Below, in pieces: positions 3,667-20,597 of a stretch of DNA of 64,000 nt. Source of the DNA: Candidatus Micrarchaeota archaeon (GTDB lineage Archaea > Micrarchaeota > Micrarchaeia > Norongarragalinales > Norongarragalinaceae); contig JACQQD010000011.1 of NCBI GenBank assembly GCA_016207165.1, forward strand, positions 32,001-96,000, read 5' to 3'. Numbering within the stretch: the stretch's first letter is position 1; the number at the start of each line of letters is the position of its first letter. A model generated the notes under the pieces. It worked only from the letters and a program-made list of their open reading frames with translations, searched no databases and had not been told where the DNA came from. The translations under genes and the position numbers were made by a program.

Positions 3667-4173
3667 CTAGTACACGCTGAGTTTCTTCACGGAGGATAAG
3701 TCCGCCAATTGTTTGAGGACATTCGCCGAAGGCTTTTTGGATAAAAGCAGGAACAACTTGGGGTTCTCAAAGAGTTCGGGGTCCTCCGTCAGAATCTGGC
3801 GGATGGGGACGTGGTGTTCGGCAAGCACGCGCGTGACGTCCGCCACGATTCCGGGCTTGGCGGCGTTGGGCGGCTCGATTTCCAAGACTTGGATCTTGAA
3901 GACCGACGCCGACTTCAAAAAAAGCGGGCCGGCGGGCTGAACGGTTTCAAACACCGGCTTCAAAAAGGCGTCGTCCTGGATTCGGGACACAGTGGCCCGG
4001 ACGACTCTTCGGTCCACGCCGCACGAATCCGCCAAGGACACGTCCTTGACTTGCACGTCGCCGCAATAAACCTTCCCTTGGGAAACGCGAAGACCCAAGC
4101 CCAAGAGTTTCTTGGCCACCCTTTCTTGGGCGGGAAAACCGGCAAAGGAGTCCTTCAAGCGCTGCCAAATCAT
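3667..4173 (-). CDS. trpY: TrpY-like ACT-domain regulator of amino acid metabolism (COG2150 type)
   Basis: MIW start with the only Trp at residue 3, an HTH-like SLADSCGVDRRVV segment, and C-terminal ACT motifs PGIVADV and IRQILTEDPEL. Divergent from trpE. Confidence 0.8.
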   Translation of the reverse strand: MIWQRLKDSFAGFPAQERVAKKLLGLGLRVSQGKVYCGDVQVKDVSLADSCGVDRRVVRATVSRIQDDAFLKPVFETVQPAGPLFLKSASVFKIQVLEIEPPNAAKPGIVADVTRVLAEHHVPIRQILTEDPELFENPKLFLLLSKKPSANVLKQLADLSSVKKLSVY

Positions 4174-4175
4174 GA

Positions 4176-4213
4176 TGTACTTTTTTGTACTACAAAGATA
4201 TAAATAGTGCACT
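4176..4213. promoter_or_regulatory. trpY/trpE control region: two TRP-box-like TGTACT hexamers (4176-81, 4186-91), TATA box TATAAATA (4199-4206), palindrome AGTGCACT (4206-13)
   Basis: Near match to the TGTACA TRP-box consensus known for Methanothermobacter TrpY, located next to the TATA box. Confidence 0.65.
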
Positions 4214-4237: not shown

Positions 4238-5579
4238 ATGGGAGTCGGTTTTCTTTGGCCACAGCCAAACCAAGTCGCAGTCGCTGGACACGAAACTGGA
4301 TCCGCTGCAGGCCTTTGAGCGCGTCTACGTCAACTCCGAGCATTGCTTCTTATTGGAATCCTTTGAAAAGGACGGAACCCTCGGGAGGTACTCGTTTTTG
4401 GGTTTCAATCCAAAGCACCACATCCGCGTCAAAAACGGCGTCACGCACTTTGACGACGAGGAACGCGACGAAGACCCGTTTTTGTTTTTGAAATCCTTTT
4501 GCATCTCTTCCAAAGCCCAAGGCTTTCGCGGCGGGGCGGTGGGCTACGTGTCGCATGACGCCATCCAGTACATCGAGGACTTCAAGCCAAAAACCGGAAG
4601 CTTTCCAGACTTGGAGTTCGGCGTGTATTTGGACGGCGTGATTTTCGACCACCAAAACCATTCCACCCGCTATGTGTACCACGACGAAAACCGGGTGGAC
4701 GAATTGGAGGCGTTGTTGCGGGAGGAACCCGGCGAACAAAAAACAAGCGTCAAAGTCTCGGAACCGTTTTTCGGAGAGGAAGAGTTCTGCGAGGCCGTGG
4801 GTAAAGCCAAGGAACGCATTGCCGCCGGCGACGCGTTTCAAATCGTTTTATCCAGGAAGTATCCCGTCAAATTCGAGGGCTCGAAAATGCCGTTCTACAA
4901 AGCCCTCCGGAAAACCAACCCGTCGCCGTACCAGTACGTGTTGAAAATGGGGGACCGGGAAATCGTGGGTTCCAGCCCCGAACAGTTGGTCCGCGTGGAG
5001 AACGGCGAGGCGACCACGTTTCCCATCGCCGGCACCCGTCCCAGAGGCAAGACCCCGGAATTGGATGAAGCCCTGGAAAAAGAGTTGGTTTCGGATCCCA
5101 AAGAACAAGCCGAACACGCCATGTTGGTGGATTTGGCGCGCAACGACATCGGCCGGATTTCAAAGGCAGGCACGGTAACCGTCAAGCGATACGCGGAAGT
5201 CAAGAAGTTCAGCCACGTCCAGCACCTCGTCTCGGAAGTCTCTGGAAAACTCAATGGGTCGGCGGTGGACGCGCTTAAATCCGTGTTTCCCGCGGGCACG
5301 CTTTCCGGAGCGCCCAAGCTTTCGGCATTGAAAATCATTGACCAACTGGAGCCCCAGCCGCGGGGGCCCTACGGCGGAGCCGTCGGATTTTTGTCTTTGG
5401 ATGGAGCCTGCGATTTCGCGATTTCCATCCGAACGCTTTTCTGCGACGGCAACCAAGGATTCGTCCAGGCTGGCGCCGGAATCGTCCAGGACTCCGTGGC
5501 CGAAAAAGAATTCTTGGAAACCCAGCACAAGGCGCAAGCGCTCTTGGACTGCTTGAAACAACAAACCGATTTGGCGTGA
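4238..5579 (+). CDS. trpE: Anthranilate synthase component I; N-terminus apparently needs a +1 frameshift near 4253-4258
   Basis: Motifs FLLES, GDAFQIVLS, NPSPY, PIAGTRPRG, EHAMLVDLARND, PAGTLSGAPK. The TrpE-like frame runs upstream of TTG 4353 to a TAG at 4233 with no ATG/GTG/TTG. The confidence applies to identity; the start is inferred. Confidence 0.9.
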
Positions 5580-6154
5580 AGAAAAAAATGAAACTATTGG
5601 TTTTGGATAACTTCGACTCGTTCACCTACAACCTCGTCCAACTCTTCCAAGCGCAAGGGGCGGATTGCCTGGTGTTTAGAAACAACGCATCCATGCACCA
5701 AATCGAGAAACTGCGGCCTGACGCCGTCTTGATTTCGCCGGGACCTGGAACCGTGGAGAACCCCAAGGACTTCGGCGTGTGCGCGCACGTTTTGAAGGCG
5801 CTGGACGTGCCGCAGTTGGGCGTGTGCTTGGGGCACCAGGGCTTGGCCTACGTCTTCGGAGGAAAAATCAGGCGGGACACACCGGTACACGGCAAGACGA
5901 GTTTGGTCACGCACAACGGCAAAGACGTTTTCAAGAACGTCAAGAACCCTTTTCGGGCCGCCCGCTACCACTCGCTGGTCGTGGACGCAAAAACCGTGCC
6001 GGATTGTCTGGAAGTCACGGCGCACGGGCCCAATCAGGAAATCATGGGGCTAAAGCATAAAGAAAAGCCGTTGTTTGGCGTGCAATTCCACCCCGAGTCC
6101 TTCATCACCGAAGACGGAGTAAAAATGGCGAGAAACTTTTTGGACTTGATTTGA
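5576..6154 (+). CDS. trpG: Anthranilate synthase component II (glutamine amidotransferase)
   Basis: DNFDSFTYNL, SPGPG, GVCLGHQ, RYHSL, QFHPES. Start at GTG 5576 or ATG 5588. Confidence 0.95.
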   Translation: MKKKMKLLVLDNFDSFTYNLVQLFQAQGADCLVFRNNASMHQIEKLRPDAVLISPGPGTVENPKDFGVCAHVLKALDVPQLGVCLGHQGLAYVFGGKIRRDTPVHGKTSLVTHNGKDVFKNVKNPFRAARYHSLVVDAKTVPDCLEVTAHGPNQEIMGLKHKEKPLFGVQFHPESFITEDGVKMARNFLDLI

Positions 6155-7147
6155 ATGGATGAATTGATCACCGCATTGGAAACCCGGGAAAACCTTTCCG
6201 AAAACCAATCGGAACAGCTGGCCGACGGGTTCCTGGACAACACGATGAAGCATGAAGACATCAAGCGCGTGCTTTTGGCGTTGAACGCCAAAGGGCCTTG
6301 CGTTGAAGAAGTCGTGGGCTTTGCGAAAAGCATGCGGAAGCATTCCATCAAAATCCACCCTCAACGCCAAGTCGTGGACACGTGCGGCACCGGAGGCGAC
6401 GGCGCCAGTACGTTTAACATTTCGACTACCGCGGCGTTCATTGTCGCGGCCTGCGGCCAGGCCGTTGCCAAACACGGCAACAAAAGCGTTTCAAGCCAAA
6501 GCGGGTCCGCCGACGTCTTGGATGCGCTTGGATTGAACATCCACGTGCCGCCTGAAAAAACGCAGGACATGATTGACGAAACGGATTTTGGCTTCCTCTT
6601 TGCGCCGTTGTACCATCCGGCCATGAAGCACGTGGCGCCGGTGAGAAAAGAGTTGGGCGTGAAAACCATCTTCAATCTATTGGGCCCGCTGACGAACCCA
6701 GCCAGCGCCCAATTTCAAGTCATCGGCGCGTACGATGCCAAAACGCAGGCGTTGCTGGCGGAAGCCGTAAAACGGTTGGGCACGCAACGGACGTTGGTGG
6801 TGAAAGGCGAGAAGCTAGACGAAGCCGGTTTTGGTAAAACCCAGGTCTTGGATGTGACCAAAAAGGGCATTGATGCATTTGAATTGCATTCCGAGGAATT
6901 CGGGCTGAAAGGCGCCGTTGCGGATTTAGTGGTTGAAAACGCCAAGCAAAGCGCCTTGTTTGTCCGCCAGGCGCTGCAGGATGACGGGGTCAAAAGCAGG
7001 GTGGCGGCACTTAACGCCGCGTTGGCGTTGTATGCGGCCGGGAAGGCGGAAACCGTTCAAGAGGGGTTCACCAAAGCCAAAAACGTCTTGAATTCGGGCC
7101 GCGCCATGTTCAAACTCCAGGAAGCCGTGTCGGTGTCCAAGCTATGA
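6155..7147 (+). CDS. trpD: Anthranilate phosphoribosyltransferase
   Basis: DTCGTGGDG, FNIST, KHGNKSVSSQSGSADVL, NLLGPLTNP. Confidence 0.95.
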   Translation: MDELITALETRENLSENQSEQLADGFLDNTMKHEDIKRVLLALNAKGPCVEEVVGFAKSMRKHSIKIHPQRQVVDTCGTGGDGASTFNISTTAAFIVAACGQAVAKHGNKSVSSQSGSADVLDALGLNIHVPPEKTQDMIDETDFGFLFAPLYHPAMKHVAPVRKELGVKTIFNLLGPLTNPASAQFQVIGAYDAKTQALLAEAVKRLGTQRTLVVKGEKLDEAGFGKTQVLDVTKKGIDAFELHSEEFGLKGAVADLVVENAKQSALFVRQALQDDGVKSRVAALNAALALYAAGKAETVQEGFTKAKNVLNSGRAMFKLQEAVSVSKL

Positions 7148-7902
7148 CGTTTTTGGACGACGTGTTGCAAGAAGTTGAAGAAAACGTTTTGACGGGTTAC
7201 TACAAGAAGCGTCCGGGAAAACCCGTGAATGCAGGACAAGTCTCTCTGGAAGGACGGCTTGAATCCTCGTTTACGATCATCGCGGAAATCAAGCCCCAAT
7301 CCCCCACGCACGGAACGCTTTTTGAAGGCGACGCGGCCGAGTTGGCGGAAACCTACAAAAAAAACGGCGCGGGAGCCATTAGCGTGTTGTGCGAGCCGAA
7401 CCGTTTTGGCGGTTCGCTGGAAAACCTCTCCAAAGCCAAGAAAACGGGTTTGCCGGTTCTAGCCAAGGACTTCGTCCTTTCGTTCCATCAATTGGACGCG
7501 TACAAGGCGTTTGGCGCGGACGCCGTGCTTCTGATCCACGAATTGTTTGACGTGAAAAAAACCGAGGGAAGTCTTGACGAATTCATTGCCGCCGCCCACG
7601 AAAAAAAGTTGGAAGTCGTCTTGGAAGTGCATGCCCGGCACGGCTTGGAGGAAGCGGTGCAGACAAAAGCGGACGTGATTGGCATCAACAACCGGGACCT
7701 GTACACCCTGGCGCTAAACCCCTTGCATTACCAAAACGTGTTAGGCGACATTCAACCGGACCGGCCCATCATTGCCGAAAGCGGGTTTAAGTCCAAAGAA
7801 GACCTGGAAATAGCCAAAGCCGTGGGCATCAACGGCGTGCTGGTGGGAACGGCGCTCCTGGAAAGCGGCGACCCCGGCAAATCATTGAGGGAATTGTTGT
7901 GA
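7144..7902 (+). CDS. trpC: Indole-3-glycerol phosphate synthase (not fused to TrpF)
   Basis: [35 protein letters not shown]. Confidence 0.93.
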
Positions 7903-9035
7903 CGTACTTCGGCTCGTTTGGCGGCATGTACGTGCCGGAAACCTTGGTCGCGCCGCTGCAGCGCATCCAGCGCGAGTACGCCAAACGCAAAAACGATTCC
8001 CTGTTTCAAACCAAGTTCCAGCAACTGTTGCGCGAATACGCGGGAAGGCCTTCGCCCCTGTATTTCGCGGAAAAACTGTCGAAAGCCTACGGCTGCAAGA
8101 TTTACCTGAAACGCGAGGACCAGCTTTACACCGGCTCGCACAAAATCAACAACGCCTTGGGCCAAAGCCTGTTTGCCAAATCACTTGGCGCAGAGCGGGT
8201 GATTGCAGAAACTGGGGCGGGACAGCATGGCGTGGCAACAGCCACCGCGTGCGCGCTGTTGGGATTGAAGTGCGTGGTGTACATGGGGTCGGAAGACGTC
8301 AAGCGCCAGTACTTGAACGTTCAACGCATGAAGTTGCTTGGAGCGGAAGTTCGGCCCGTGGATTCGGGGTCCAAGACGCTGAAAGACGCCATCAACGAAG
8401 CGCTTCGCGACTGGGTGGCACAACCGGAAAGCTATTACTTGATTGGTTCCGTCGTTGGGCCGTCGCCTTACCCTGAAATGGTGCGGGACTTTCAACGCGT
8501 GATTGGCGACGAGACCCGAGAACAAGTCATGCAACGCGAGGGAAAGCTTCCCGACGTGTTGGTGGCGTGCGTGGGTGGCGGCTCGAATGCCATGGGCTTG
8601 TTTTATCCGTTCAAAGACGAGCATACCGTCAAGAAAATCGGGGTGGAAGCCTACGGCGCCGCATCGCTTTGCTTTGGAAAAACAGGCGTGCTGCACGGCG
8701 CGAAAACCAAGGTGCTCCAAGACGCCGACGGACAAATCATGGAGACGCACAGCATTTCAGCGGGGTTGGACTACTCGGCCGTAGGCCCCGAACATGCATT
8801 CTTTCAGGAAACCGGGATCGCGGACTACTCGGCGGTCAACGACGAACAGGCACTCGCCGCATTCCGGGAATTATCCATTCAAGAAGGCATCATTCCGGCG
8901 TTGGAATCCGCGCACGCCGTAGCCAAAGGCCTGGATTTGGCGCAGATCCTGGACAAGGACCAAATCATGGTCATCAACTTGAGCGGCCGCGGCGACAAAG
9001 ATACCCATGCCCTTGAAGCGCTTGGACTGAAATGA
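7899..9035 (+). CDS. trpB: Tryptophan synthase beta chain
   Basis: [44 protein letters not shown]. Confidence 0.97.
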
Positions 9036-9093
9036 AACGAAAAAATCGGAAATAGATTGGGCGACGAAAAAAATCAAAAAAAAATAAGAAAAA

Positions 9094-9852
9094 ATGGTTT
9101 TGAAGAAAATGAAGTTCACGCGTCTTTTTGAATCCAAGAAATTCGTCTTTTTGCCCTACGTGTGCTTGGGCTACCCCACCCTTCAAGAAAGCATCCAAAT
9201 CGTGAAAACCCTGGAACCCTTTGCCGACGGGTTCGAACTGGGCATACCGTTCTCCGACCCGGTGGCGGACGGCCCAGTGCTTCAAGCCGCCACGCAAGCC
9301 GCATTGAAAAACGGCTTCCACGTAACAGACGCGTTTCGGGCCATCAGGGAAATCCGTTCGTTCACGCAAAAGCCTCTGGCCGTCATGACGTACCTCAATC
9401 CGGTGCTGGCCTACGGCTTGGAAAAATTCGCTTCCGATGCGCAAAACGCGGGCGCGGATGCCGTCATTGTGCCGGATTCGCCCATGGAGGAAAACGATTC
9501 GCTTCAGGCCGCGTGTTCCGGGAAACTGGAAGTGCCGCTGTTCGTTTCCCCTACCACGCCGGATTCGCGGGCCGCCAAGATTTCGGAAAAAGCGCAAGGC
9601 TTCGTGTACGGCATTGCCGTGAAAGGCGTGACTGGCGCACGAGAAAACGCCGCAAAGGACATGCAGGCGTTAGTCGGCAAAGTCAAAAACAAGCCCGTCG
9701 CCATCGGTTTCGGCATTTCGAAAGCCGAACACGTCCAAGCCGTAAAAAATTCAGGCGCGAGAGGATTCATCGTGGGCAGCCAAATCGTGAAAGCGTACAA
9801 CGAATCCAAACTGGACGGGGTAAAACAATTCGCAAAATCCCTATCGCCATAG
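9094..9852 (+). CDS. trpA: Tryptophan synthase alpha chain
   Basis: ELGIPFSDPVADGP, MTYLNPV, GVTGAR, GFGIS. Start at 9094 or 9109. Confidence 0.95.
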   Translation: MVLKKMKFTRLFESKKFVFLPYVCLGYPTLQESIQIVKTLEPFADGFELGIPFSDPVADGPVLQAATQAALKNGFHVTDAFRAIREIRSFTQKPLAVMTYLNPVLAYGLEKFASDAQNAGADAVIVPDSPMEENDSLQAACSGKLEVPLFVSPTTPDSRAAKISEKAQGFVYGIAVKGVTGARENAAKDMQALVGKVKNKPVAIGFGISKAEHVQAVKNSGARGFIVGSQIVKAYNESKLDGVKQFAKSLSP

Positions 9853-10304: not shown

Positions 10305-10931
10305 CTACTTTGTTTGGGAAAGAATCTTGGCTTCGGCTTTGCGCAAGTGGGAGAGGAACACGGTTTTGGGAATGCCCAACAGTTTTGCGGCGCGCGTGGC
10401 GGTGATGCGGCGGGGCCACGCGTAATAGCCGAGGTGCCTTGCCGCTTGGAAGGCTTCGCGCTGCTTGGCCGTGAGGCTCTCGGTAAAACCGGTTTGCTTG
10501 AGGTAACGCACCAACACGGGAAAGCGCTTTTGGAGGTGGGCCAAGACGCGGGCCAGGTTTTGTTTTTCGGAGGACGCCAGCGTCCAGACTTCAAAGAGTC
10601 CCTCAAAGCGGGTGGGGGCCGCGGAAAAACAGTGGTTGTCAAAAAAGACGTCGGAAAAGTGCTCTAGGTTCCGGGTGGCTTTGGTCAGCACGCGGAGAAA
10701 AAGCGCTTCACCACGCGAGAGTTCCTCCACGCGCGACACGTCGCCTCTTTTCTTGAAGTAAGCCAGAACCGCATCGAAAAATTCAGGCGGCCCGTCCACG
10801 CGCACGACGTGGGCGACCTGTTTTTTGATCCAACGGCAGTCCACGGACGAAAAAGTGTTGCGAGGAAAACGAGGGGACACGTCGGAGCCCCAACACCCTC
10901 GGTGTTCGATGGAGAACTCGGCTTGAAACAT
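10305..10931 (-). CDS. Bacterio-opsin-activator-type (HTH_10) transcriptional regulator
   Basis: C-terminal LTAKQREAF..A...GYYAWPR....A..LGI....HLRKAEAKI. Confidence 0.85.
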   Translation of the reverse strand: MFQAEFSIEHRGCWGSDVSPRFPRNTFSSVDCRWIKKQVAHVVRVDGPPEFFDAVLAYFKKRGDVSRVEELSRGEALFLRVLTKATRNLEHFSDVFFDNHCFSAAPTRFEGLFEVWTLASSEKQNLARVLAHLQKRFPVLVRYLKQTGFTESLTAKQREAFQAARHLGYYAWPRRITATRAAKLLGIPKTVFLSHLRKAEAKILSQTK

Positions 10932-11002
10932 GAAAAGGCAATGGGAAGCGCGGGATTTAAAAACAGGGAACGGGACAAGAAAGTAAGCAAGGGTTAGCTC
11001 CC

Positions 11003-11068
11003 ATGACTGAAGTTAAAGCAAACCAACAGAATTGGTCGTTTGGCTTTAGCTTTGGCTATTTTGGCTGA
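11003..11068 (+). CDS. Candidate aromatic-amino-acid leader peptide MTEVKANQQNWSFGFSFGYFG
   Basis: ATG 11003 to TGA 11066-68. Six of the last 11 codons are W/F/Y. Lies upstream of the DAHP synthase operon. Confidence 0.8.
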   Translation: MTEVKANQQNWSFGFSFGYFG

Positions 11069-11072
11069 CTTT

Positions 11073-11168
11073 GGGAAAAACCCTTGCAAGCTGTTTTTGG
11101 TTGAAGTTCTCCGGCTTGCAGCCGGCGGCGGGTTTTTCCCTTGACGTTCAATCGGGAGGGAAGGGAAA
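11073..11168 (+). promoter_or_regulatory. Attenuator-like alternative hairpins: 11073-83 pairs with 11130-40, or 11135-42 pairs with 11161-68
   Basis: GGGAAAAACCC/GGGTTTTTCCC (11 bp) and TTTCCCTT/AAGGGAAA (8 bp) share segment 11135-40. Confidence 0.7.
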
Positions 11169-11208
11169 TGACGAAGGTAAATAAAAGCAAAGACGCGGTG
11201 AAAAAATC

Positions 11209-12219
11209 GTGATCATTGTTTTCGAGCCTAAGGCCACCGAAGCCCAAGTCCAGCACGTGTTCGAGCGGCTCCAGGAATGGGGTTTCACGCCGGTACTGCA
11301 GGAAGGCGAACAGATTTCCATTGCGATTACCGGCGACTCCTCGGCACTAAGAACCCAAACCCTGGAGGCCTTTGACGGCGTGCAGAAAGCCGTCCGCCTC
11401 AAGGAAGCCTACAAGCTGGTGTCCAAGGAATTCAAGCCCGAAGGCACCGTCATTGAGCTTGGGGACGTGAAAATCGGCGGCAAAAAATTGTTGATGATTG
11501 CCGGGCCCTGCAGCGTGGAAACCGAGGAACAATACGTGTCCACCGCGAGAGCCGTCAAAAAAGCGGGGGCCCAGGTGTTGCGCGCCGGCATCTACAAGCC
11601 AAGAACCTCGCCCTACGACTTTCAAGGCGTGGGGGAACGGGGTTTTCCGTGGCTGAAAAAAGCCAAGGACGAAACCGGACTGCCGCTTTGCGCCGAAGTC
11701 TTGGACGTGGCCTCCATTGCCAAGACCAAGGACCACGTGGACATGTACCAAGTCGGCGCCCGCAACATGCAGAACTACGACCTGCTTAGAGCATTGGGAA
11801 AAGGCGGCAAGCCCGTGCTGCTTAAGCGAGGCTTGTCCGGCACCATCAAGGAACTCTTGTTGGCCGCGGAATACATCATGTCGTCTGGCAACCACGACGT
11901 GATGCTATGCGAGCGAGGCATTCGCACCTACGAAACGGCTACCCGATTCACGTTGGATATCGGAGCCGTTCCCGTGCTGCACCACGACACGCATTTGCCC
12001 GTCATCGTGGACCCGTCGCACCCGGCAGGGAAACGGTCTTTGGTTGGATCCATGGCGAAAGCCGGCGTGGCCGCGGGAGCGGACGGCTTGATCGTGGAAG
12101 TGCACCCCGAACCCGAGAAAGCCTGGTCCGACGCGGCCCAGCAGTTGACGTTCGACCAATTCGAACAGTTAATGGCGGAATTAAAGCCCGTGGCGCAGGC
12201 CGTGGGACGGGAGCTCTGA
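11209..12219 (+). CDS. aroF: DAHP synthase, class I-beta with an N-terminal regulatory domain
   Basis: IAGPCSVE, KPRTSPYDFQG, GARNMQN, LKRG, CERGIRT, DPSH. Confidence 0.95.
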   Translation: MIIVFEPKATEAQVQHVFERLQEWGFTPVLQEGEQISIAITGDSSALRTQTLEAFDGVQKAVRLKEAYKLVSKEFKPEGTVIELGDVKIGGKKLLMIAGPCSVETEEQYVSTARAVKKAGAQVLRAGIYKPRTSPYDFQGVGERGFPWLKKAKDETGLPLCAEVLDVASIAKTKDHVDMYQVGARNMQNYDLLRALGKGGKPVLLKRGLSGTIKELLLAAEYIMSSGNHDVMLCERGIRTYETATRFTLDIGAVPVLHHDTHLPVIVDPSHPAGKRSLVGSMAKAGVAAGADGLIVEVHPEPEKAWSDAAQQLTFDQFEQLMAELKPVAQAVGREL

Positions 12220-12220
12220 C

Positions 12221-13264
12221 ATGCAGACGATGAGCCTGGACTTGGGGAAAAGCCGCGTGCTGGTGGGAAGCGGAGCGTTAACCCAAGTCAAGGCCTTGGC
12301 GGAAACGGACGGCAAAGCGTTCATCGCGCACCAAAAAGCCACCAAAGCGTACGCCGAAACGTTAGCCAAACAAATGGACGGCAAGACGCACCTCGTTCAA
12401 ATGCCGGACGGCGAGGCGGCCAAGACACTTGACCAGATTGCCGCCTTGTACCAGGAGGCGCTTGATTTCGGGTTGGAGCGCAGCGACACCGTTTTCGCGG
12501 TAGGCGGCGGGTGCCTGGGGGATGCCGTGGGATTCACGGCCGCCACGTACATGCGGGGCGTTTCGTTGATCCACGTGCCGACGACGTTGTTGGCGCAAGT
12601 GGATTCCGCCATCGGAGGAAAAGTCGGCATCAATTTCGCCGGCACCAAGAACATGGTCGGCGCCTTCCATTTTCCAAAACTCGTGGTCTGCGACATTGAC
12701 ACCCTGGAGAGCTTGCCGGGCGAACAGGTCAAAAACGGTTTGGCGGAAGTCGTCAAGTACGGCTTGATTTTGGACGAGGACTTGTTTTCCTTCGTGGAAG
12801 AAAACAAAGCGGGCCTGCTGCAGAAAAAACCGGAACGGCTTCAGCACGTGGTGTCGCAAAGCGTGCAAATCAAGGGAAAAGTCGTGGCCGAAGACGAGCG
12901 GGAAGCCGGAGAAAGAATGAAACTCAATTACGGCCACACCTTGGGGCACGGAATCGAGGCGGTGACGGCAATGCAGCACGGCAAAGCCATTTCCATCGGC
13001 ATGCATGCCGCCGGCATCTTGGCCGTCAAGCGCGGCCTCTTGAAGCCGAAGGACTTGGATCGGCAAAACCAGCTGCTTATTGACGTGGGATTGCCCTTGA
13101 CGGCCAGGTTTGACGTAAGCGCCGTCATGGAAAAAGTCTCCCACGACAAGAAGAAAACTCAAGGCAAACTGCGCATGGTTTTGCTGGACGCCATTGGCTC
13201 GTGTGCGGTGCATGACGTGAGCGACGACGAGGCCCGAAAAGCCTTGGAAGAGGTATTGAAATGA
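12221..13264 (+). CDS. aroB: 3-dehydroquinate synthase
   Basis: GGGCLGD, PTTLLAQVDSAIGGKVGIN, LNYGHTLGH. Confidence 0.95.
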   Translation: MQTMSLDLGKSRVLVGSGALTQVKALAETDGKAFIAHQKATKAYAETLAKQMDGKTHLVQMPDGEAAKTLDQIAALYQEALDFGLERSDTVFAVGGGCLGDAVGFTAATYMRGVSLIHVPTTLLAQVDSAIGGKVGINFAGTKNMVGAFHFPKLVVCDIDTLESLPGEQVKNGLAEVVKYGLILDEDLFSFVEENKAGLLQKKPERLQHVVSQSVQIKGKVVAEDEREAGERMKLNYGHTLGHGIEAVTAMQHGKAISIGMHAAGILAVKRGLLKPKDLDRQNQLLIDVGLPLTARFDVSAVMEKVSHDKKKTQGKLRMVLLDAIGSCAVHDVSDDEARKALEEVLK

Positions 13265-13938
13265 TTCTGGTTCCCATCGTGGCAAGAACGGTGACGGAAG
13301 CCAAGCGCCAGCTTGCATCCGCGAAGAAAGCGGGAGCCGACGGCGTGGAAATACGGCTGGATGCGTTTGAACACGTCACCTCCGACGACGTACTGGAAAT
13401 GGTAAAAAATAGTCGGCTGCCGGTGCTGGCCACTTGCCGCACCAAGAACGAAGGCGGATTCACGAGAAAGACCAGCGATGAACGAAAAAAACTGTTGTTG
13501 GCGGCCATCCAGGCCAAAGCGGCTATGGTGGACGTGGAATTGTCCAGCCCGCCGGCGTTTCGAAACGCCGTCAAGGCGGCATGCCGCAAAAACAAATGCA
13601 GGCTCGTCGTCTCCAAGCACGATTTTGACCGGACGCCGGAGCCCAAAACCTTGAATCAATGGGTCAAGGAGGCGTTGAAAGCCGGAGACATCGCGAAAAT
13701 CGTGTGCTTGGCCCACCACACCGTCGACCTGCTACGCCTGTTGGACCTCGTCAAGCACGGAAACGGCAACGTGGTGGCCTTTGCGATGGGGGAACAAAAC
13801 AAGCAGAGCCGCGTGCTAAGCCTCTTGTACGGCGCGCCGTTTGGCTTTGCCGCCTTGCACCGCGAAAGCGCGCCCGGACAGATTCCACTGAAGCAGATGC
13901 GGTTGGCGTTGGAGGCCACCAAAGAGTGGGTCGCATGA
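13261..13938 (+). CDS. aroD: Type I 3-dehydroquinate dehydratase
   Basis: EIRLD, TCR...EGG, SKHDF..TP, DIAK, AMG, SAPGQ. Confidence 0.9.
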   Translation: MILVPIVARTVTEAKRQLASAKKAGADGVEIRLDAFEHVTSDDVLEMVKNSRLPVLATCRTKNEGGFTRKTSDERKKLLLAAIQAKAAMVDVELSSPPAFRNAVKAACRKNKCRLVVSKHDFDRTPEPKTLNQWVKEALKAGDIAKIVCLAHHTVDLLRLLDLVKHGNGNVVAFAMGEQNKQSRVLSLLYGAPFGFAALHRESAPGQIPLKQMRLALEATKEWVA

Positions 13939-14759
13939 TTACCGCGAAAACCAAGTTGCTGGCCATCATCGGAGACCCCGTCCAGCACTCGCTTTCTCCA
14001 GTTATGCGCAACGCGTCGTTTGAGGCGTTGGGTTTGGATTACGTCTACGTCGCCCTGAACGTCAAGAAAGAAGAGTTGGAAACGGCTGTGGCCGGCATGC
14101 AGGTTCTCGGGTTTCGGGGTTTCAACGCCACCATGCCGCACAAAAAAGCGCTCTGCGGCTTGGTGGATGAAATGGATGAGTTCGCCAAATTCTGCGACGC
14201 CGTCAATACCGTGGACATCAACGAGACGCTTTACGGCTACAACACAGACGGACCCGGAGCCCTGGAGGCGCTCAAGCAAGCGCAAGCCGATATTTCCAAG
14301 TCCGTGGTGATTGGCGCCGGTGGGGCTGGACGAGCAATTGCCTACGCGTTGGCCAAAGGGGGATCGGAAGTAACGATTTTGAATCGCGACGAACGCAAGG
14401 CGGACGCCGTGGCTGAAAAAATCCGGAAGGCGGGACTCAAGGCGAAAAGCGGCGGGCTCAACGAATTGGAAGCCCAACTGAAAACCGCGTCGACGCTGTG
14501 CCACGCCACGCCGGTGGGCATGCACGGCCATGAAAGCGTGATTCCGGCGAAACGGCTCCACCCGGAACTGACGGTCATGGATGCCGTGTACAAGACCACG
14601 GAGACGAAACTCATTGCCGACGCAAAAAAAGCGGGGTGCCAGATTGTTCCGGGATGGAAGATGCTCTTGCACCAAGGCCAGTTGAGCTTTGAACGCTGGA
14701 CCGGAAAAAAAGCGCCCATGGACGTCATGGAGCAAGCCCTCAAAGAGGCCATGAAATGA
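13935..14759 (+). CDS. aroE: Shikimate dehydrogenase
   Basis: GDPVQHSLSP, NATMPHK, AVNT, NTDG, GAGGAGRA, MLLHQG. Start at ATG 13935. Confidence 0.95.
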   Translation: MITAKTKLLAIIGDPVQHSLSPVMRNASFEALGLDYVYVALNVKKEELETAVAGMQVLGFRGFNATMPHKKALCGLVDEMDEFAKFCDAVNTVDINETLYGYNTDGPGALEALKQAQADISKSVVIGAGGAGRAIAYALAKGGSEVTILNRDERKADAVAEKIRKAGLKAKSGGLNELEAQLKTASTLCHATPVGMHGHESVIPAKRLHPELTVMDAVYKTTETKLIADAKKAGCQIVPGWKMLLHQGQLSFERWTGKKAPMDVMEQALKEAMK

Positions 14760-15256
14760 ACGTCGTGCTCATCGGATTCATGGGCTCCGGCAAAACCAGC
14801 GTAGGGAAAGCCCTGGCCAGAAAAAAGGAAATGGATTTCCTGGACATGGACGAAGAAATCGAAAAACAGGAAGGCCGGAAAATTTCGGACATCGTAAACG
14901 AAAACGGAATGGATTTCTTTCGCGACAAGGAATCCGTGTTGCTTGAAGAAATCAGCCGGAAAAACCCGGAAAACACGGTGGTGGCCACCGGCGGCGGCGT
15001 CATCTTGTCCCAAGAAAATCGCGCGATTCTCAAAAAACTTGGACGCGTGGTTTGGTTGGACGTCAGCCCCCTCCACGCGCATGAAAGGACAAGAAACGAC
15101 GACAACCGGCCTTTGCTGAACCATCCCAACCGCCGGGCCGTCATCGAGGAACTCCTCCGAAAAAGAAAGCCGTTTTACCAGGAAGCCGAACTGCACATCC
15201 AAGTCGACGGAAAGACGCCGGAACAAGTCGCAAAAGAAATCGAGGGAAAACTGTGA
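14756..15256 (+). CDS. aroK: Shikimate kinase (bacterial NMP-kinase type)
   Basis: LIGFMGSGKTSVG, FRDKE, ATGGG, RPLL. Confidence 0.93.
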   Translation: MNVVLIGFMGSGKTSVGKALARKKEMDFLDMDEEIEKQEGRKISDIVNENGMDFFRDKESVLLEEISRKNPENTVVATGGGVILSQENRAILKKLGRVVWLDVSPLHAHERTRNDDNRPLLNHPNRRAVIEELLRKRKPFYQEAELHIQVDGKTPEQVAKEIEGKL

Positions 15257-16485
15257 AAATCATTCCCGGAAGCCTGGAAGGCGCCGTGCACGCGCCGGCA
15301 TCCAAAAGCCACACCCACCGCGCCTTGATCTGCGCGGCGCTGGCCAAAGGATCGTCGCAAATCAAGGGAGCCTTGGTCTCCGATGACACGCTTGCCACGG
15401 CGCGCGGTCTAAGCGTTTTGGGCGCGAAATTGGACAAGGACCACGTGGATGGAACGTACACCTTGGAAAAAGGCGGGACACTGCAATGCCAGGAATCCGG
15501 GTCCACCCTGCGCTTTTTGCTACCCGTCGCGTGCCTCTCCAAACAATCCTGCACGCTGGTGGGGACCGGCCAGTTGCCGCACCGACCCGTCAAACCGTTG
15601 GCCAACGCGCTCAATGCGTTGGGTGCGGACGTGCAAACCCAGAACGGCGGACTGCCTGCACTCACGCAACCCGGATTGAAAGGCGGCCGCTGCACCCTTC
15701 CAGGACACCTCAGTTCGCAGTTTGTCTCCGGGTTATTGTTCGCCCTGCCGCTGTGCAAAAATGATTCCACCCTCAACATCACAGGCCCACTTCAGTCAAA
15801 GCCGTACGCGGACTTGACGAAGCAAACCATCCAAGCCTTCGGCGTTGACGTGAAGGAAGAAGACGGAAAATACCACGTGCCCGGCAACCAACAATACCAG
15901 CCCCAGAAAATCCAAGTCGAAGGCGACTGGTCGTCCGCCGCGTTCTGGATGGTGGCCGGAGCCGTTGGAGGCGACGTCCACGTCACGGGCCTTGAAAGCA
16001 AGTCGCTTCAAGGCGACAAGGCGGTTGCGGCGATACTGGAAAAAATGGGCGCCGACGTGCAAGAAACCGCCAACGGCGTGCGCGTCACGCAAAGCCCGCT
16101 TCAAGGCGTGGAAGTTGACGTATCCAACATCCCGGATTTGTTGCCCATCCTCAGCGTGGCGGCGTGCTTTGCGCAAGGAACCACCCGGTTTTACAACGCG
16201 GAGCGGCTGCGCTTAAAAGAAAGCGACCGATTGGGCGGAATGGCCGAAGAGCTTTCCGCCATGGGCGTTACCCTCCAGGAAAAACAAGACGAACTGGTCA
16301 TCCGAGGCGGCAAAGCGTTGAAGGGAACAACCCTAAAAAGTCACGGCGACCACCGCATTGCCATGAGCCTGGTCATCGCCGCACTCCACGCGAAAGGGGA
16401 AAGCGAGTTGGACGACGCGGACTGCGTCGCCAAGTCCTACCCCGGATTTTTCAGTGATTTAAGCAAGTTGAGGAGAACGACGTGA
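15253..16485 (+). CDS. aroA: EPSP synthase
   Basis: PASKSHTHR, ESGSTLRF, SSQFVSGLL, DWSSA, KESDR, DHRIAM. Confidence 0.96.
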   Translation: MKIIPGSLEGAVHAPASKSHTHRALICAALAKGSSQIKGALVSDDTLATARGLSVLGAKLDKDHVDGTYTLEKGGTLQCQESGSTLRFLLPVACLSKQSCTLVGTGQLPHRPVKPLANALNALGADVQTQNGGLPALTQPGLKGGRCTLPGHLSSQFVSGLLFALPLCKNDSTLNITGPLQSKPYADLTKQTIQAFGVDVKEEDGKYHVPGNQQYQPQKIQVEGDWSSAAFWMVAGAVGGDVHVTGLESKSLQGDKAVAAILEKMGADVQETANGVRVTQSPLQGVEVDVSNIPDLLPILSVAACFAQGTTRFYNAERLRLKESDRLGGMAEELSAMGVTLQEKQDELVIRGGKALKGTTLKSHGDHRIAMSLVIAALHAKGESELDDADCVAKSYPGFFSDLSKLRRTT

Positions 16486-17570
16486 ACCAGCATTACGGCA
16501 AAACATTTGAAGTGCAACTCGCCGGCGAATCCCATGGCCTTGGCGTGGGATGCATCATCCAGGGATGCCCAGCGGGACTGCCGCTGACGGAAGGCGACAT
16601 CCAAAACGAGTTGGACAAGCGAAAACCAGGACAGACGTTAACCACGCCCCGAAAAGAAGAAGACAAAGTGCAAATCAAGTCGGGCGTGTTTGAAGGAAAA
16701 ACCACGGGCGCCCCGATTCTTTTGTGGATCGACAACCACGACGTGCAATCCCAATCCTACGGGAAACTCAACGAAGTCCCCCGACCAGGGCACGCCGACG
16801 TGACGGCCGCCGAAAAATACGGGGGATTCAACGACTACCGGGGCAGCGGCGCGTTTTCCGCGCGGCTGACCGCCGCCTTGGTGGCCGCGGGCGCCATTGC
16901 CAAAAAACTCCTGAAACGCCAAGGCATCGAGATTTTGGGCCACGTCCAGCAATTGCACGACGTGAAAGTCACCGACGCCACCGACGAGGCTATCCGGAAA
17001 AACGCGTATTCCAACCCGGTGCGGTGCGCGGACCCCAAAGCCGCCAAAGCCATGCAACGGCGCTTGGACGAAGCGCTTTTGGACGGGGACTCGCTGGGGG
17101 CCGTAATCGAGTGCCGAGTCCTGAACGTTCCAAGCGGAGTGGGGGAGCCGAGGGCCCAATCCGTGGAAAGCGTGATTGGATCCAACTGTTTGGCGCTTCC
17201 AGCAGTCAAGGGCGTGGAATTCGGGGAAGGCTTTGCCGCCGCAACCATGAAAGGCAGCCAACACAACGACGCCTACCTGGAACAAGACGGCGGCATCGTC
17301 ACGAAGACCAACCACGCCGGCGGCACCCTCGGCGGCATCACCACCGGCATGCCGATCGTGTTCCGCGTCGCGTTCAAGCCCACGTCCAGCATCGCCAAAA
17401 CCCAGACCACCCTGAACGTCGCCACCAAAAAACAAGAAAAACTCAACGTCGGCGGACGACACGACCCCTGCGTCGCGCTTCGAGCGGTTCCCATCGTTCA
17501 AGCCATGGCGGCATTAAGCATCGTGGACTTAATGCTCCAAGCGCAAAAAATCCCGCGGGTGCTGAAATGA
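16482..17570 (+). CDS. aroC: Chorismate synthase
   Basis: GESHG, PRPGHAD, SARLTA, FKPTSSI, GRHDPC. Confidence 0.96.
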   Translation: MNQHYGKTFEVQLAGESHGLGVGCIIQGCPAGLPLTEGDIQNELDKRKPGQTLTTPRKEEDKVQIKSGVFEGKTTGAPILLWIDNHDVQSQSYGKLNEVPRPGHADVTAAEKYGGFNDYRGSGAFSARLTAALVAAGAIAKKLLKRQGIEILGHVQQLHDVKVTDATDEAIRKNAYSNPVRCADPKAAKAMQRRLDEALLDGDSLGAVIECRVLNVPSGVGEPRAQSVESVIGSNCLALPAVKGVEFGEGFAAATMKGSQHNDAYLEQDGGIVTKTNHAGGTLGGITTGMPIVFRVAFKPTSSIAKTQTTLNVATKKQEKLNVGGRHDPCVALRAVPIVQAMAALSIVDLMLQAQKIPRVLK

Positions 17571-18667
17571 CGCTGGAAAAAAGCCGCGGACGCATCGACG
17601 AAATCGACGAACAGATCACGAAACTCTTGGCCGAACGCGTGAACGTCGCCAAACGCACCCGCAAGGAAAAACAAGTCCAAGGCCAAGGGGTGACGGACGC
17701 CTCCCGCGAGAAGAACGTCTTGGAGCACGTCGAACGCGTGGCCAAAGAACATGGACTGGACCCCAACTTGGCGCTGCGCGTCTTTGAGGAAATCATGGCC
17801 GCGTCCAAGGCCCAGCAATACATGGACCACGACGCGCCCACCACGGAACGCCTTGACATTCAAACCGTGGCCTTCCAAGGCGAACGCGGCGCGTACAGCG
17901 AAGAGGCGCTTCGGCAAATCCTTCCAAACGCCGACCCCGTGCCTCGGCCGGAACTTGGCGACGTGTTTGACGAAGTGCAAAAAGGAAAAGCGGATGCCGG
18001 ACTGGTGCCTATTGAGAACAGTACGGAAGGCAGCATCAACTACACGTACGATCTTTTGTTGGACTCCCAATTGGGCATCGCCGGCGAGACGTTCTTGCGC
18101 GTGCGTCATTGCTTGCTGGCCAAATCAGGCACGAAAACGCGGGAGGGACTCCACGTGTACTCGCATCCCCAGGCGTTGGCCCAATGCCGGGATTTTTTGA
18201 TTGGCAAAAAACTGCAGCCCGTGCAATACTACGACACCGCCGGCGCCGCCAAAGCCATTGCCGAAGGCAAAATCCAAGGGGCCGCCATTGCCTCCAAGAC
18301 GGCGGCCGAACACTACGGGTTGGACGTGTTGGCGGAAGGCATTGAAGACAACCGCAACAACTACACGCGATTTATACTGATTTCCAAGAACACGCCGACG
18401 CCCACCGACTCGGACAAAACCTCCATCGTTTTTAGCACGCACCACCGGCCCGGCGCCTTGTTTGAAGTCATGAAAGTCTTTGCCAAAGCCGACATCAACC
18501 TGACCAAACTGGAGTCGCGGCCCACCAAGCAAAAACCCTGGGAGTACTTCTTCTATATGGATTTCGAGGGCACGGCATCCAAAGCCCCGTACCAGCAAGC
18601 CCTGGAAAACATCAAGCCCCACACGCTGTTCCTGAAGGTGCTGGGCAGCTATCCCCGGTCGCGGTGA
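17567..18667 (+). CDS. pheA: Chorismate mutase / prephenate dehydratase (P-protein)
   Basis: N-terminal CM (RGRIDEIDEQI), FQGERGAYSE, PIENSTEG, SHPQALAQC, NYTRF and ACT ESRP. Start at ATG 17567. Confidence 0.95.
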   Translation: MTLEKSRGRIDEIDEQITKLLAERVNVAKRTRKEKQVQGQGVTDASREKNVLEHVERVAKEHGLDPNLALRVFEEIMAASKAQQYMDHDAPTTERLDIQTVAFQGERGAYSEEALRQILPNADPVPRPELGDVFDEVQKGKADAGLVPIENSTEGSINYTYDLLLDSQLGIAGETFLRVRHCLLAKSGTKTREGLHVYSHPQALAQCRDFLIGKKLQPVQYYDTAGAAKAIAEGKIQGAAIASKTAAEHYGLDVLAEGIEDNRNNYTRFILISKNTPTPTDSDKTSIVFSTHHRPGALFEVMKVFAKADINLTKLESRPTKQKPWEYFFYMDFEGTASKAPYQQALENIKPHTLFLKVLGSYPRSR

Positions 18668-18735
18668 AATCCAAAACCTTGAAAAGCCCCAAAGCGCCCT
18701 AAAAACAAGGATTGCAAAACCGGTGGGAAAAAGTC

Positions 18736-19812
18736 ATGGCCTTGACGCTGTACCAATTGTCGGAAAAAATCTTCGAACTTGAAAAACAGGGAAAAAAGAT
18801 TCTGCGTTTGAACATTGGCGACCCGGGCCTAGTCACCCCCGACGCACTACGCAACGCCGCCAAAAAGTCGTTGGACGCCGGAGAAACACGGTACGCGTCG
18901 GCCCAAGGCGAAAAGCCGTTGTTGGACAAAATCGCTTCGACGCACGGCGCGGAGGCGCAAAACGTTTCCGTCACCCCAGGAAGCAAGTGGGCGTGCTACG
19001 CCGTCCTCCAATTGATGCTGAAACCCGGGGACAACATCGTCACCCCGGCGCCGTTTTGGTCGGCGTACGAATTAATGGCCAAAAGCTTCGGAGCCGAATG
19101 CCGACTGGTTAAAACGGAAATGGAGGACCACTTCCAATTCGACCCTCAAGCCTTGTTCGAATTGGTGGACGCCAAGACGAAAGTCATCGTGCTGAACGAC
19201 CCGTCCAACCCCACGTCCACGGAATACGGCGCTGAAAGCGTGAAAGCCGTGCTGGAATACGCGCAAGACCAAAAAATCTTGGTGTTGCTGGACGAAGCAT
19301 ACCGCGACTTGTCGTTCAAGAAAAATGAGTTGATGACGTACCAGGAGGGATTGGCGATCACCACCACGTTTTCCAAAGCGTACTGCATGAGCGGCTGGCG
19401 CGCCGGCTACCTGGTCGCCGACGCCGACGTCATCAAAAAAGTCGTTTCCCTTAACCAAATCACGTTCACCAACGTGCCTCGCTTCACCCAAGCCGCCATG
19501 CTGGAGGGGCTGACCCGCAGAGAGGAAGTCACGGGAGCCACGCGCAACGAATGCAAAAAGCGCTTGGCGGCTTGCGAACAAGTCTTTAAAGGAATTCAAT
19601 ACGCGAGGCCGGACGCAGGATTCTACTTCTTCCCCAAAGTCTCCGACGGCGACTCGATCACGGAAAAAATCTTGGAACAAGGCATTGCCGTCACGCCGGG
19701 CTCCGTCTTCGGCGGGTACAAGCAATTCATCCGGTTGTCGCTCTCGCACCCCCTGGAAAAGCTCACGCCCGCCTTGCAGACGATCCGCCGCGTGATTGAC
19801 GAGAACGCGTGA
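18736..19812 (+). CDS. PLP-dependent class I/II aminotransferase (aromatic/aspartate)
   Basis: LNIGDP, PSNPT, DEAY, FSKAYCMSGWRAG, plus operon context. Confidence 0.9.
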   Translation: MALTLYQLSEKIFELEKQGKKILRLNIGDPGLVTPDALRNAAKKSLDAGETRYASAQGEKPLLDKIASTHGAEAQNVSVTPGSKWACYAVLQLMLKPGDNIVTPAPFWSAYELMAKSFGAECRLVKTEMEDHFQFDPQALFELVDAKTKVIVLNDPSNPTSTEYGAESVKAVLEYAQDQKILVLLDEAYRDLSFKKNELMTYQEGLAITTTFSKAYCMSGWRAGYLVADADVIKKVVSLNQITFTNVPRFTQAAMLEGLTRREEVTGATRNECKKRLAACEQVFKGIQYARPDAGFYFFPKVSDGDSITEKILEQGIAVTPGSVFGGYKQFIRLSLSHPLEKLTPALQTIRRVIDENA

Positions 19813-19843
19813 CGGTTCCCATGAAGAAGAAGAAGGGAAAACA

Positions 19844-20572
19844 ATGAAAGCACTTGGCCTCGTTGGATTTGGCCAATTCGGAAAATTCGCCGCCCGACAC
19901 CTCAAGGACCACTTCGACGTCACGGTGTCTGACGAGAAAGACGTCTCGGAATCCGCAAGAAAAATGGGTTTGAAGGCCGGCCCCCTCAAGCAAGCCGCGC
20001 AAAGCGACGTCGTGGTCCTGGCGGTTCCCGTGTCCAAACTGCGTTCCGTATTGAAAGCCATAGCGCCCCACCTCAAAAAAGGCGCGTGGGTGGCCGACGT
20101 AGGCTCAGTGAAGATCGAGCCCGTGGAATGGATGGAAAAAATCCTTCCGAAAACCGTGAACGTCATCGGCACGCACCCCATTTTCGGGCCTCAAAGCGGG
20201 AGAAACGGCATTCAAGGCTTACCCATCATCGTATGCCCCGTGCGCGGGGATTCCGCCAAAGTGACAGCCTTTCTGGAAGGTACACTCAAACTCCACGTCG
20301 TCCAATCCACCCCCGAAAAACACGACGAAGACATGGCCTACAGCCAAGCGTTGGCCCATTTCGTGGGCCAGGCGCTCAAAGAAATGGATTTGCCGGACGT
20401 CAAGGAAAAAGCCGCCACGTATGAGGCCCTCTTGGCCATCCGGGACCTCGTGAAATACGACTCCCCGGAGTTGTTTGAAACCATTCAAAAAGAAAACCCG
20501 CACGCCGAAACGGTCCGCCAACGCTTCATGGACCAACTTGAAGAAATCCACAAGCGGTTGCGTAAAGCTTAA
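19844..20572 (+). CDS. tyrA: Prephenate/arogenate dehydrogenase
   Basis: GFGQFG Rossmann motif, DVGSVK, THPIFGP, HDEDMA.SQAL.H. Confidence 0.92.
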   Translation: MKALGLVGFGQFGKFAARHLKDHFDVTVSDEKDVSESARKMGLKAGPLKQAAQSDVVVLAVPVSKLRSVLKAIAPHLKKGAWVADVGSVKIEPVEWMEKILPKTVNVIGTHPIFGPQSGRNGIQGLPIIVCPVRGDSAKVTAFLEGTLKLHVVQSTPEKHDEDMAYSQALAHFVGQALKEMDLPDVKEKAATYEALLAIRDLVKYDSPELFETIQKENPHAETVRQRFMDQLEEIHKRLRKA

Positions 20573-20597
20573 ACAACGCCTCCAACGTAACGAATCC

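Follow-up and report, generated by a model that had tools for sequence, protein, structure and literature searches.

Leader-peptide attenuation is a textbook case of coupled transcription and translation in bacteria, and such coupling has been shown in archaea too. In the trpL and pheL leaders of Escherichia coli, a short open reading frame (ORF) has its control codons close to the end, and RNA segment 2 begins a few nucleotides (nt) after its stop codon. At tnaC, which works with Rho, the position of the ribosome on the leader decides whether the factor gains access to the naked RNA past the stop codon, and in the translational attenuation of ermC and cat a stalled leader ribosome remodels a downstream hairpin and frees a ribosome-binding site. 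The known archaeal control of the aromatic pathway is TrpY, which represses the trp operon. To our knowledge there is no known archaeal leader-peptide attenuator, and we found none described in the full-text literature, whose coverage leaves out most subscription journals. Corynebacterium glutamicum carries the aroR leader before aroF; stalling on its Phe-Tyr-Phe codons is reported to increase transcription of the operon, and Phe limitation to give read-through (as summarized in PMC11802643, describing Neshat et al. 2014). Here we analyse an ORF of 21 codons, many of them for Phe, Tyr or Trp, that precedes the aromatic operon of a Micrarchaeota archaeon, in a stretch of 64,000 nt hereafter called the window (contig JACQQD010000011.1, positions 32,001-96,000 of the forward strand, assembly GCA_016207165.1). 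All coordinates are those of the window.

We consider it likely that the element is a cis-acting, ribosome-mediated attenuator of the Micrarchaeota aromatic operon with this ORF as its sensor, and highly likely that the leader peptide serves in sensing of one kind or another. The core of this proposal, that an archaeal ribosome reads an aromatic leader, has strong support from comparative evidence. We infer the attenuation mechanism itself, its output and the response to starvation.

The leader and its occurrence in Micrarchaeota

The proposal draws on the following features of the window:

10956-10963, forward strand: TATA-like box TTTAAAAA, 39 nt 5' of the leader ATG
11003-11068, forward strand: leader ORF of 21 codons, MTEVKANQQNWSFGFSFGYFG followed by the stop codon (ATG at 11003, TGA at 11066-11068)
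11073-11087, forward strand: segment 2, GGGAAAAACCCUUGC, the 5' arm of hairpin P1, starting on the fifth nt after the stop codon
11086-11119, forward strand: inner stem of P1, GCAAGCUG (11086-93) with CGGCUUGC (11112-19), whose loop holds a run of five U (U5) at 11094-98
11125-11140, forward strand: segment 3, GCGGCGGGUUUUUCCC, the 3' arm of P1 and the last conserved block before aroF
11209-20572, forward strand: operon aroF, aroB, aroD, aroE, aroK, aroA, aroC, pheA, an aminotransferase gene and tyrA, by NCBIfam matches

The box, the ORF and the ten-gene operon had been pointed out in a preliminary description of this DNA, and both the coordinates and the NCBIfam matches agree with it. Six of the 21 leader codons are aromatic (Trp at 11033-35; Phe at 11039, 11045, 11051 and 11060; Tyr at 11057), all of them inside 11033-11062. 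The leader ORF lies 140 nt from aroF (11209-12219, with a GTG start at 11209), which encodes a DAHP synthase with an N-terminal regulatory domain and heads the ten aromatic-pathway genes; among these, the pheA product is a chorismate mutase/prephenate dehydratase. Relatives have a TTTA(A/T)AAA box at a similar distance, and it is invariant in a genus-level alignment of five sequences (our own, one genome and three metagenome contigs). Transcription would start near 10985-10990.

Taken alone, an aromatic-rich ORF of this kind is only mildly unusual, and a single instance is weak evidence: 25 of 10,647 short ATG ORFs in the same genome reach at least six aromatic residues in ten, which is what can be said for a chance ORF beside a chance hairpin. 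It is conservation in relatives, and not rarity in its own genome, that tells us the leader is no accident. A scan of the genome gave no second copy, and a crude scan of its intergenic regions gave no convincing leader peptide for Trp, His, Leu, Ile/Val, Thr or others.

The preliminary description had recommended searching upstream of DAHP synthase genes in related genomes, and this search proved productive. DAHP synthase was encoded in 11 of 41 relatives' genomes; in ten of these 11 loci the gene is immediately preceded by a short, aromatic-rich ORF, and in the eleventh the short ORF stands upstream of transketolase genes that precede DAHP synthase. A sample of the phylum (DAHP synthase in 69 of 401 genomes) added 60 further upstream regions. 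We applied a fixed rule, namely an ATG ORF of 12-45 codons with at least five aromatic residues in some ten-residue window, plus a stem that scores at least 22 and starts -16 to +13 nt from the stop. By this rule 42 of 70 DAHP synthase regions have the leader ORF and its stop-adjacent stem on the strand of the gene; the reverse strand gives 5 of 70. Homologous loci outside Micrarchaeota are positive in 1 of 31 cases from genomes and in 0 of 25 from metagenomes, the latter loci being about 50% identical. A looser rule gives 34/55 regions, with controls at 4/55 and 5/49. Together with the covariation of the hairpin described below, these counts exclude, for all practical purposes, a coincidence of ORF and hairpin.

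By family-level group, the regions with a leader are distributed as f1 4/4, f7 4/4, f10 2/2, f2 1/1, f24 3/3, f12 3/6, f19 23/26, f15 1/1 and f21 1/4, and f8, where the leader is seen with a weaker stem, is the tenth such group. At least ten family-level groups share the ORF, the stop-adjacent hairpin 2:3 and their spacing. By the fixed rule no leader was found in f13 (0/5), f14 (0/10) or in f23, f28 and f35 (0/1 each), where the DAHP synthase gene may perhaps lie inside an operon. Bacterial homologues of this DAHP synthase have no such leader, with one possible exception, which argues that the leader did not simply arrive with a transferred operon. The exception, a Melioribacter sp. locus (L032, JAENZU010000051.1), is the sole locus outside Micrarchaeota that the fixed rule marks as positive: a 13-codon ORF, MQQIYFQFRFGFC, with an adjacent stem stands about 500 nt upstream of DAHP synthase and may be a bacterial aromatic leader.

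The composition of the leaders fits the pathway they precede. Across 46 leaders, F makes up 19.3%, Y 10.3% and W 3.4% of residues, 5-8 times the 3.6, 2.2 and 0.4% of ten window proteins. Of the 46, 36 have a single Trp codon, and none has two. Phe and Tyr thus dominate while all three end products are represented, as had been claimed for the single leader first seen. Lengths range from 18 to 38 codons in relatives, with ATG, frame and stop retained, and the variable tails are still aromatic (FYFW, YFRFNFWY and YYYCH, for example). A core F-S-F-(S/G)-Y and an early A-K-x-N are conserved across families.

The host itself is an archaeon of the DPANN group. Its 1.27-Mb genome (12 contigs, estimated completeness 90%) encodes TBP and an orthologue of aCPSF1/FttA (TIGR03675, 831 bits against a cut-off of 580). 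Sigma-70 region 2 was not found in it, and the assembly contains no rRNA gene. Among named records, the closest DAHP synthase loci (77-78% identity) come from groundwater genomes of Candidatus Micrarchaeota archaeon. These findings together support the archaeal origin, which had also been stated before.

Hairpin 2:3 and the ribosome

The hairpin begins where an attenuator would need it. GGGAAAAACCC (11073-11083) is perfectly complementary to GGGTTTTTCCC (11130-11140), and inside this outer stem sits the inner one, first listed as TGCAAGCTG (11085-93) with CGGCTTGCA (11112-20). In the window the fold of 11066-11145 reaches -33.4 kcal/mol (z score -3.17), and none of 200 shuffles was as good. 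The start of segment 2 near the stop, its perfect pairing with segment 3 and the inner stem had all been described from the window, and the coordinates bear this out. Among the five genus-level sequences 97.5% of alignment cells are paired in the inner stem, where one pair occurs as G-C, A-U and G-U, and 90.9% in the outer stem. Conservation in the same alignment starts at the TATA box, takes in the leader, segment 2 and the inner stem, and ends with segment 3 (GCGGGUUUUUCC).

Across the wider family, a stem finder places a stem of 10-21 bp, starting -16 to +13 nt from the end of the stop codon, in 38 of 38 leaders. Against dinucleotide shuffles the stem score has a median z of 2.7, exceeds 2 in 25/38 and reaches p<=0.05 in 21/38. 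Arm sequences vary between lineages while pairing is kept, as in GAAAACCGC/GCGGUUUUC and CCAACAC/GUGUUGG. To measure covariation, 16 hairpins were cut exactly and aligned with MAFFT, and a single helix of 15 pairs was scored. Paired cells amount to 81.6%, against 71.8% in shuffles, and both sides change in ten of the 15 pairs, where shuffles give 5.5. For covariation the score is 0.393 (shuffles 0.228); none of 500 shuffles came as high on any of the three measures. Slid partners scored 0.11-0.19, a control that favours P1 in that its structure was derived from the same sequences. The hairpin 2:3 is real and covarying.

A covariance model built from the P1 alignment found seven further leaders outside its seed. 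It misses the hairpin of the window itself, whose loop is long and branched, and the model's null result in the source genome is therefore uninformative. MAFFT with RNAalifold gave no consensus on 24 loosely cut hairpin windows, owing to register shifts between leaders. An alignment that mixed both strands of palindromic matches was left out of the counts. An Rfam scan of 10900-11300 returned only a microRNA model (E 0.12, far below the gathering score) and no leader family.

How would a ribosome sit on this RNA? We let its footprint extend 12 nt downstream, counted from the first base in the A site. When the stop codon occupies the A site, the ribosome covers at least 5 nt of the P1 5' arm in 36 of 37 leaders (median 12 nt), and 227 of the 290 aromatic codons in these leaders leave the arm free when in the A site. 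In the window none of the six aromatic codons brings the ribosome to segment 2, and about 6 nt of this 15-nt segment are covered from the stop position. The trpL/pheL-like geometry noticed in the window thus holds family-wide.

Alternative pairings and the output step

Segment 2 has a second possible partner, and the ORF has a helix of its own. Neither had been noticed in the preliminary description:

10987-11002, forward strand: segment 1, GCAAGGGUUAGCUCCC, in the 5' untranslated region (UTR), which can pair with segment 2 and so compete with 2:3
11009-11053, forward strand: helix P0 inside the ORF, pairing A-rich early codons (11009-11023) with U-rich aromatic codons (11038-11053)

The 1:2 duplex, between 5' UTR and segment 2, has an energy of -23.0 kcal/mol (z -6.6 against a shuffled UTR), close to the -23.5 kcal/mol of 2:3, with which it shares segment 2; the fold of 10986-11090 reaches -38.1 kcal/mol (z -3.55). 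Thus in the window segment 2 is predicted to pair equally well with segment 1 or with segment 3. The 10-bp core of 1:2 is 90-100% paired in the five genus-level sequences, and in the wider family an equivalent duplex reaches p<=0.05 in only 12 of 37 leaders. P0, whose early codons are for Lys, Asn, Glu and Gln, has a minimum free energy (MFE) of -17.6 kcal/mol (z -1.8) and a duplex energy of -18.2 (z -2.5). Its equivalent reaches p<=0.05 in 15/37 leaders, and the register varies between relatives.

P0 bears on two other ways to account for the conserved leader. In many relatives AUAGCUAAAG, which codes for A-I-A-K, is the exact complement of CUUUAGCUAU, which codes for F-S-Y, and this complementarity is why both ends of the peptide look conserved and why the third positions of the core are nearly fixed. 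The conserved F-S-F-(S/G)-Y and A-K-x-N stretches could otherwise be read as the mark of a small functional peptide, such as a membrane peptide or the precursor of a modified one, merely co-transcribed with the operon. Their mutual RNA complementarity explains both stretches. In the regions examined, moreover, the ORF was met only directly upstream of the aromatic operon, the genome holds no second copy, and no maturation genes lie beside it, and we give this explanation very little credence. The same facts might instead mean that function resides in the conserved RNA, as a leader that binds a protein or ligand or as a small RNA that ends at the hairpin, with the ORF as a by-product of its U- and A-rich arms. 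In fact, core third positions (TTC TTC AGC TTT AGC TAT) are nearly invariant in many relatives and AGC makes up 68 of 113 leader Ser codons, which indicates selection at the RNA level, and P0 does pair the early codons with the aromatic ones. Yet a by-product would hardly keep ATG, frame and stop through lengths of 18-38 codons, nor a single Trp codon in so many leaders (36 of 46), nor the stop codon beside the hairpin; RNA pairing alone leaves the aromatic character of the variable tails unexplained, and no Rfam family matches beyond noise. We find this second explanation quite improbable.

The attenuator that we favour would then work as follows. When charged Phe, Tyr or Trp tRNA is scarce, the first ribosome would stall on the aromatic codons at 11033-11062, where it would separate segments 1 and 2; segment 2 would be free to form 2:3, and the operon would be expressed. 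With an ample supply the ribosome would reach the stop codon and cover segment 2, and in untranslated RNA segment 1 would pair with segment 2. In both cases segment 3 would be left single-stranded and expression would fall. The U tract exposed in segment 3 (GGGUUUUUCCC) may be an archaeal termination signal, most plausibly acting via aCPSF1/FttA, and pairing of the A tract of segment 2 with it would hide that signal.

The output step is the weakest link of this model. That it is premature termination seems to us possible, at somewhat less than even chances; that it is translation or mRNA stability is a more doubtful prospect. Archaea use U tracts in termination. aCPSF1 binds terminator U tracts via its KH domains and is needed for efficient termination (as outlined in PMC8716108). 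We favour single-stranded segment 3 as the off signal because conservation ends at this U-rich arm, because aCPSF1 binds U tracts and because the factor is encoded in the genome. The elements of an archaeal U-tract terminator, U5 at 11133-37 and aCPSF1, are both present. The statement in the preliminary description that no U tract follows 3:4, the alternative pairing of segment 3 further downstream, is correct for that position; one U5 lies inside segment 3 all the same, and another in the 2:3 loop. A run of at least five T occurs in or next to the P1 3' arm in 15 of 37 leaders, and in the loop, in the arm or just after it in 26.

Several observations weigh against the attenuator. A search for RNA sequencing runs containing this sequence returned none. 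There is no bacterial-type terminator; 3:4 does not exceed chance and lacks a U run behind it. The U-run enrichment at the P1 3' arm is modest: T5 occurs in 25% of 70-nt intergenic windows of the genome, equally upstream and downstream of genes, and five of the 37 leaders have no T5 run between stop codon and aroF. An earlier background for these runs was mostly coding and overstates the enrichment. As a general terminator signal in this genome, T5, being equally frequent on both sides of genes, has no support either way. Timing is a difficulty too: the U tract is inside the polymerase while it is transcribed, and 2:3 cannot then affect purely intrinsic termination, so masking would require a factor acting on RNA that has emerged, or a pause, both of which are hypothetical. 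Besides the bias of the slide control, the genus-level pair counts for P1 and 1:2 are not above those of shuffles, in only five similar sequences. Aromatic codons are not always well placed, as 49 of the 290 would have the ribosome cover at least 3 nt of the P1 5' arm. Finally, no leader was found in 28 of the 70 regions, including all 15 of f13 and f14.

A different output has also to be considered, in which two further features would take part:

11135-11168, forward strand: 3:4 helix, UUUCCCUU with AAGGGAAA, present at chance level and enclosing GGGAGGG at 11154-60
11168-11212, forward strand: second small ORF, MTKVNKSKDAVKKS followed by the stop codon, 14 codons, Lys-rich, behind GGGAGGG (AUG at 11168-11170)

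Segment 3 and the purine-rich segment 4 might hide a ribosome-binding site, that of the ORF at 11168 or of aroF, which 2:3 would free. Indeed, TTTCCCTT (11135-42) is complementary to AAGGGAAA (11161-68) in an 8-bp perfect match beside GGGAGGG and an AUG, and the full-length MFE structure contains this pairing. The TGA of the small ORF (11210-12) overlaps the aroF GTG start (11209) as GTGA, which makes translational coupling to aroF possible; an ORF that ends on the aroF start is common by chance, given ATGA and GTGA starts. GGAAAAA-like words stand near an AUG downstream of segment 3 in genus-level relatives. In folds with a masked ribosome, counted by eye from a table of 32 leaders, a stalled ribosome leaves the aroF start region more open than a ribosome at the stop does in about 12 leaders (difference above 0.05) and less open in 2-3, a weak trend.

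This translational form of attenuation nevertheless strikes us as improbable. The fold of 3:4 has a z of -0.40, with 68 of 200 shuffles equally good. Duplexes of segment 3 with downstream RNA have a mean z of -0.18 in 36 leaders and fall below -2 in none, and the pairing is 52.5% in the five genus-level sequences, equal to slid controls. We rejected 3:4 as an off-state helix, since the fold z, the family duplex test and the genus pair counts are all at chance level. The stretch from segment 3 to aroF is A-rich and unalignable in the genus, 69 to about 190 nt long, and conserved in neither sequence nor length. In the window the aroF start region is equally open (0.41) in all three ribosome states. 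Short Lys-rich ORFs do occur at the same place in genus-level relatives, with unconserved length and end point, and the idea of an ORF running from the 3' end of the hairpin to the aroF start, which several relatives had suggested, was dropped for its unconserved length and peptide.

Of the preliminary interpretation, then, the leader as likely sensor, 2:3 and the geometry stand. In the case of 3:4 the pairing exists and its role as off-state helix is unsupported; the AUG at its end exists at 11168-11170 and not at 11169; and the proposed folding with a masked ribosome yielded the weak trend in 32 leaders and no change in the window. The U5 of segment 3, like 1:2 and P0, had escaped notice.

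The stretch between hairpin and aroF has its own peculiarities in other relatives. Other Micrarchaeota orders have there a conserved block that resembles TTAGTGATAAC, in many cases a small hairpin, which the genus of the window lacks; it follows the leader hairpin by 8-19 nt in L052, L053, L063, L071, L085, L090 and others. A similar word, TAGTGTAA, stands near the predicted transcript start of the same leaders. The block keeps no fixed frame. After the hairpin, leaders of other orders also have a UAG with more in-frame stops behind it; a frameshift there was considered and rejected, since the frame of this UAG relative to the leader varies and is not open from the leader. L077 (G218) has an insert of about 400 nt, made of serial short perfect hairpins, between leader hairpin and aroF. 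In L005 (G009) a direct repeat of about 100 nt occurs in two copies upstream of the leader, and a 20-codon ORF repeating the first aroF residues (MIVVFEE...) ends 3 nt before the real start; together they look like the remnant of a duplication. In L013/L003 (G001) and in L111, tandem DAHP synthase genes follow one leader, first a short form without the N-terminal domain and then the long form.

In its fullest form our proposal is transcription attenuation in an archaeon with no terminator hairpin. An antiterminator helix would hide a U-rich signal from aCPSF1/FttA, the leading ribosome would decide, one leader would integrate three amino acids for ten genes, and the system would be ancestral to much of Micrarchaeota. 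We offer this complete version as tentative, and rather unlikely to hold in every part. A candidate that recurs in many Micrarchaeota lineages, with covariation and the right geometry, makes archaeal attenuation a directly testable question. It also raises the question whether ribosomes in archaea use the structure of nascent RNA to control RNA polymerase or a termination factor and, if they do, how this works without a bacterial terminator. Genome-reduced DPANN archaea that keep the shikimate pathway would, by such means, regulate it in cis at almost no protein cost. For annotators, the leader adds a new small gene and RNA motif upstream of archaeal aro operons.

The neighbourhood and comparison with known systems

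The genes around the leader belong largely to the same metabolism. The tryptophan-tRNA ligase gene trpS (20475-21722, forward strand) overlaps the end of tyrA and resembles an eleventh operon gene. Upstream of the aro operon and on the same strand lies trpE-G-D-C-B-A (4240-9852, forward strand), and a gene for a TrpY-family regulator (NF053754, E 3e-46; 3667-4212, reverse strand) is divergent from trpE. The trp operon would thus seem to be under the known archaeal protein repressor, and the neighbouring aro operon under the leader. Before trpE there is no visible Trp-rich leader. A 208-aa gene without an NCBIfam match (10305-10931, reverse strand) is divergent from the leader promoter.

TrpY differs from the proposed attenuator in kind, as it is a DNA-binding protein at the trp operon and not an RNA- and ribosome-based sensor at the aro operon, even though a gene of its family lies in the same window. 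With ermC and cat the Micrarchaeota leader would share a stalled ribosome that remodels a hairpin; it differs from them in that no conserved pairing with a ribosome-binding site was found in Micrarchaeota leaders. The logic of access that we propose for aCPSF1/FttA is that of tnaC and Rho. Here, however, the factor would be a KH/beta-CASP nuclease and not Rho, with a role that we infer, and the sign would be opposite.

The likeness to trpL and pheL is closer. The control codons come late in the ORF, and segment 2 has two mutually exclusive partners and would be masked by a ribosome at the stop codon. The differences lie in the parts around it: there is no 3:4 terminator with a U run, segment 1 is the 5' UTR and not the control codons, the U tract is inside segment 3, and archaeal RNA polymerase and termination factors differ from the bacterial ones.

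In function, aroR of C. glutamicum comes nearest; as far as its published summary goes, it is likewise a short Phe/Tyr leader ORF directly before a DAHP synthase gene. That leader is bacterial and acts with an intrinsic terminator, and we found no sequence or Rfam relation to it. On the same comparison, the Micrarchaeota leader has more aromatic codons, usually one codon for Trp, and an archaeal TATA box.

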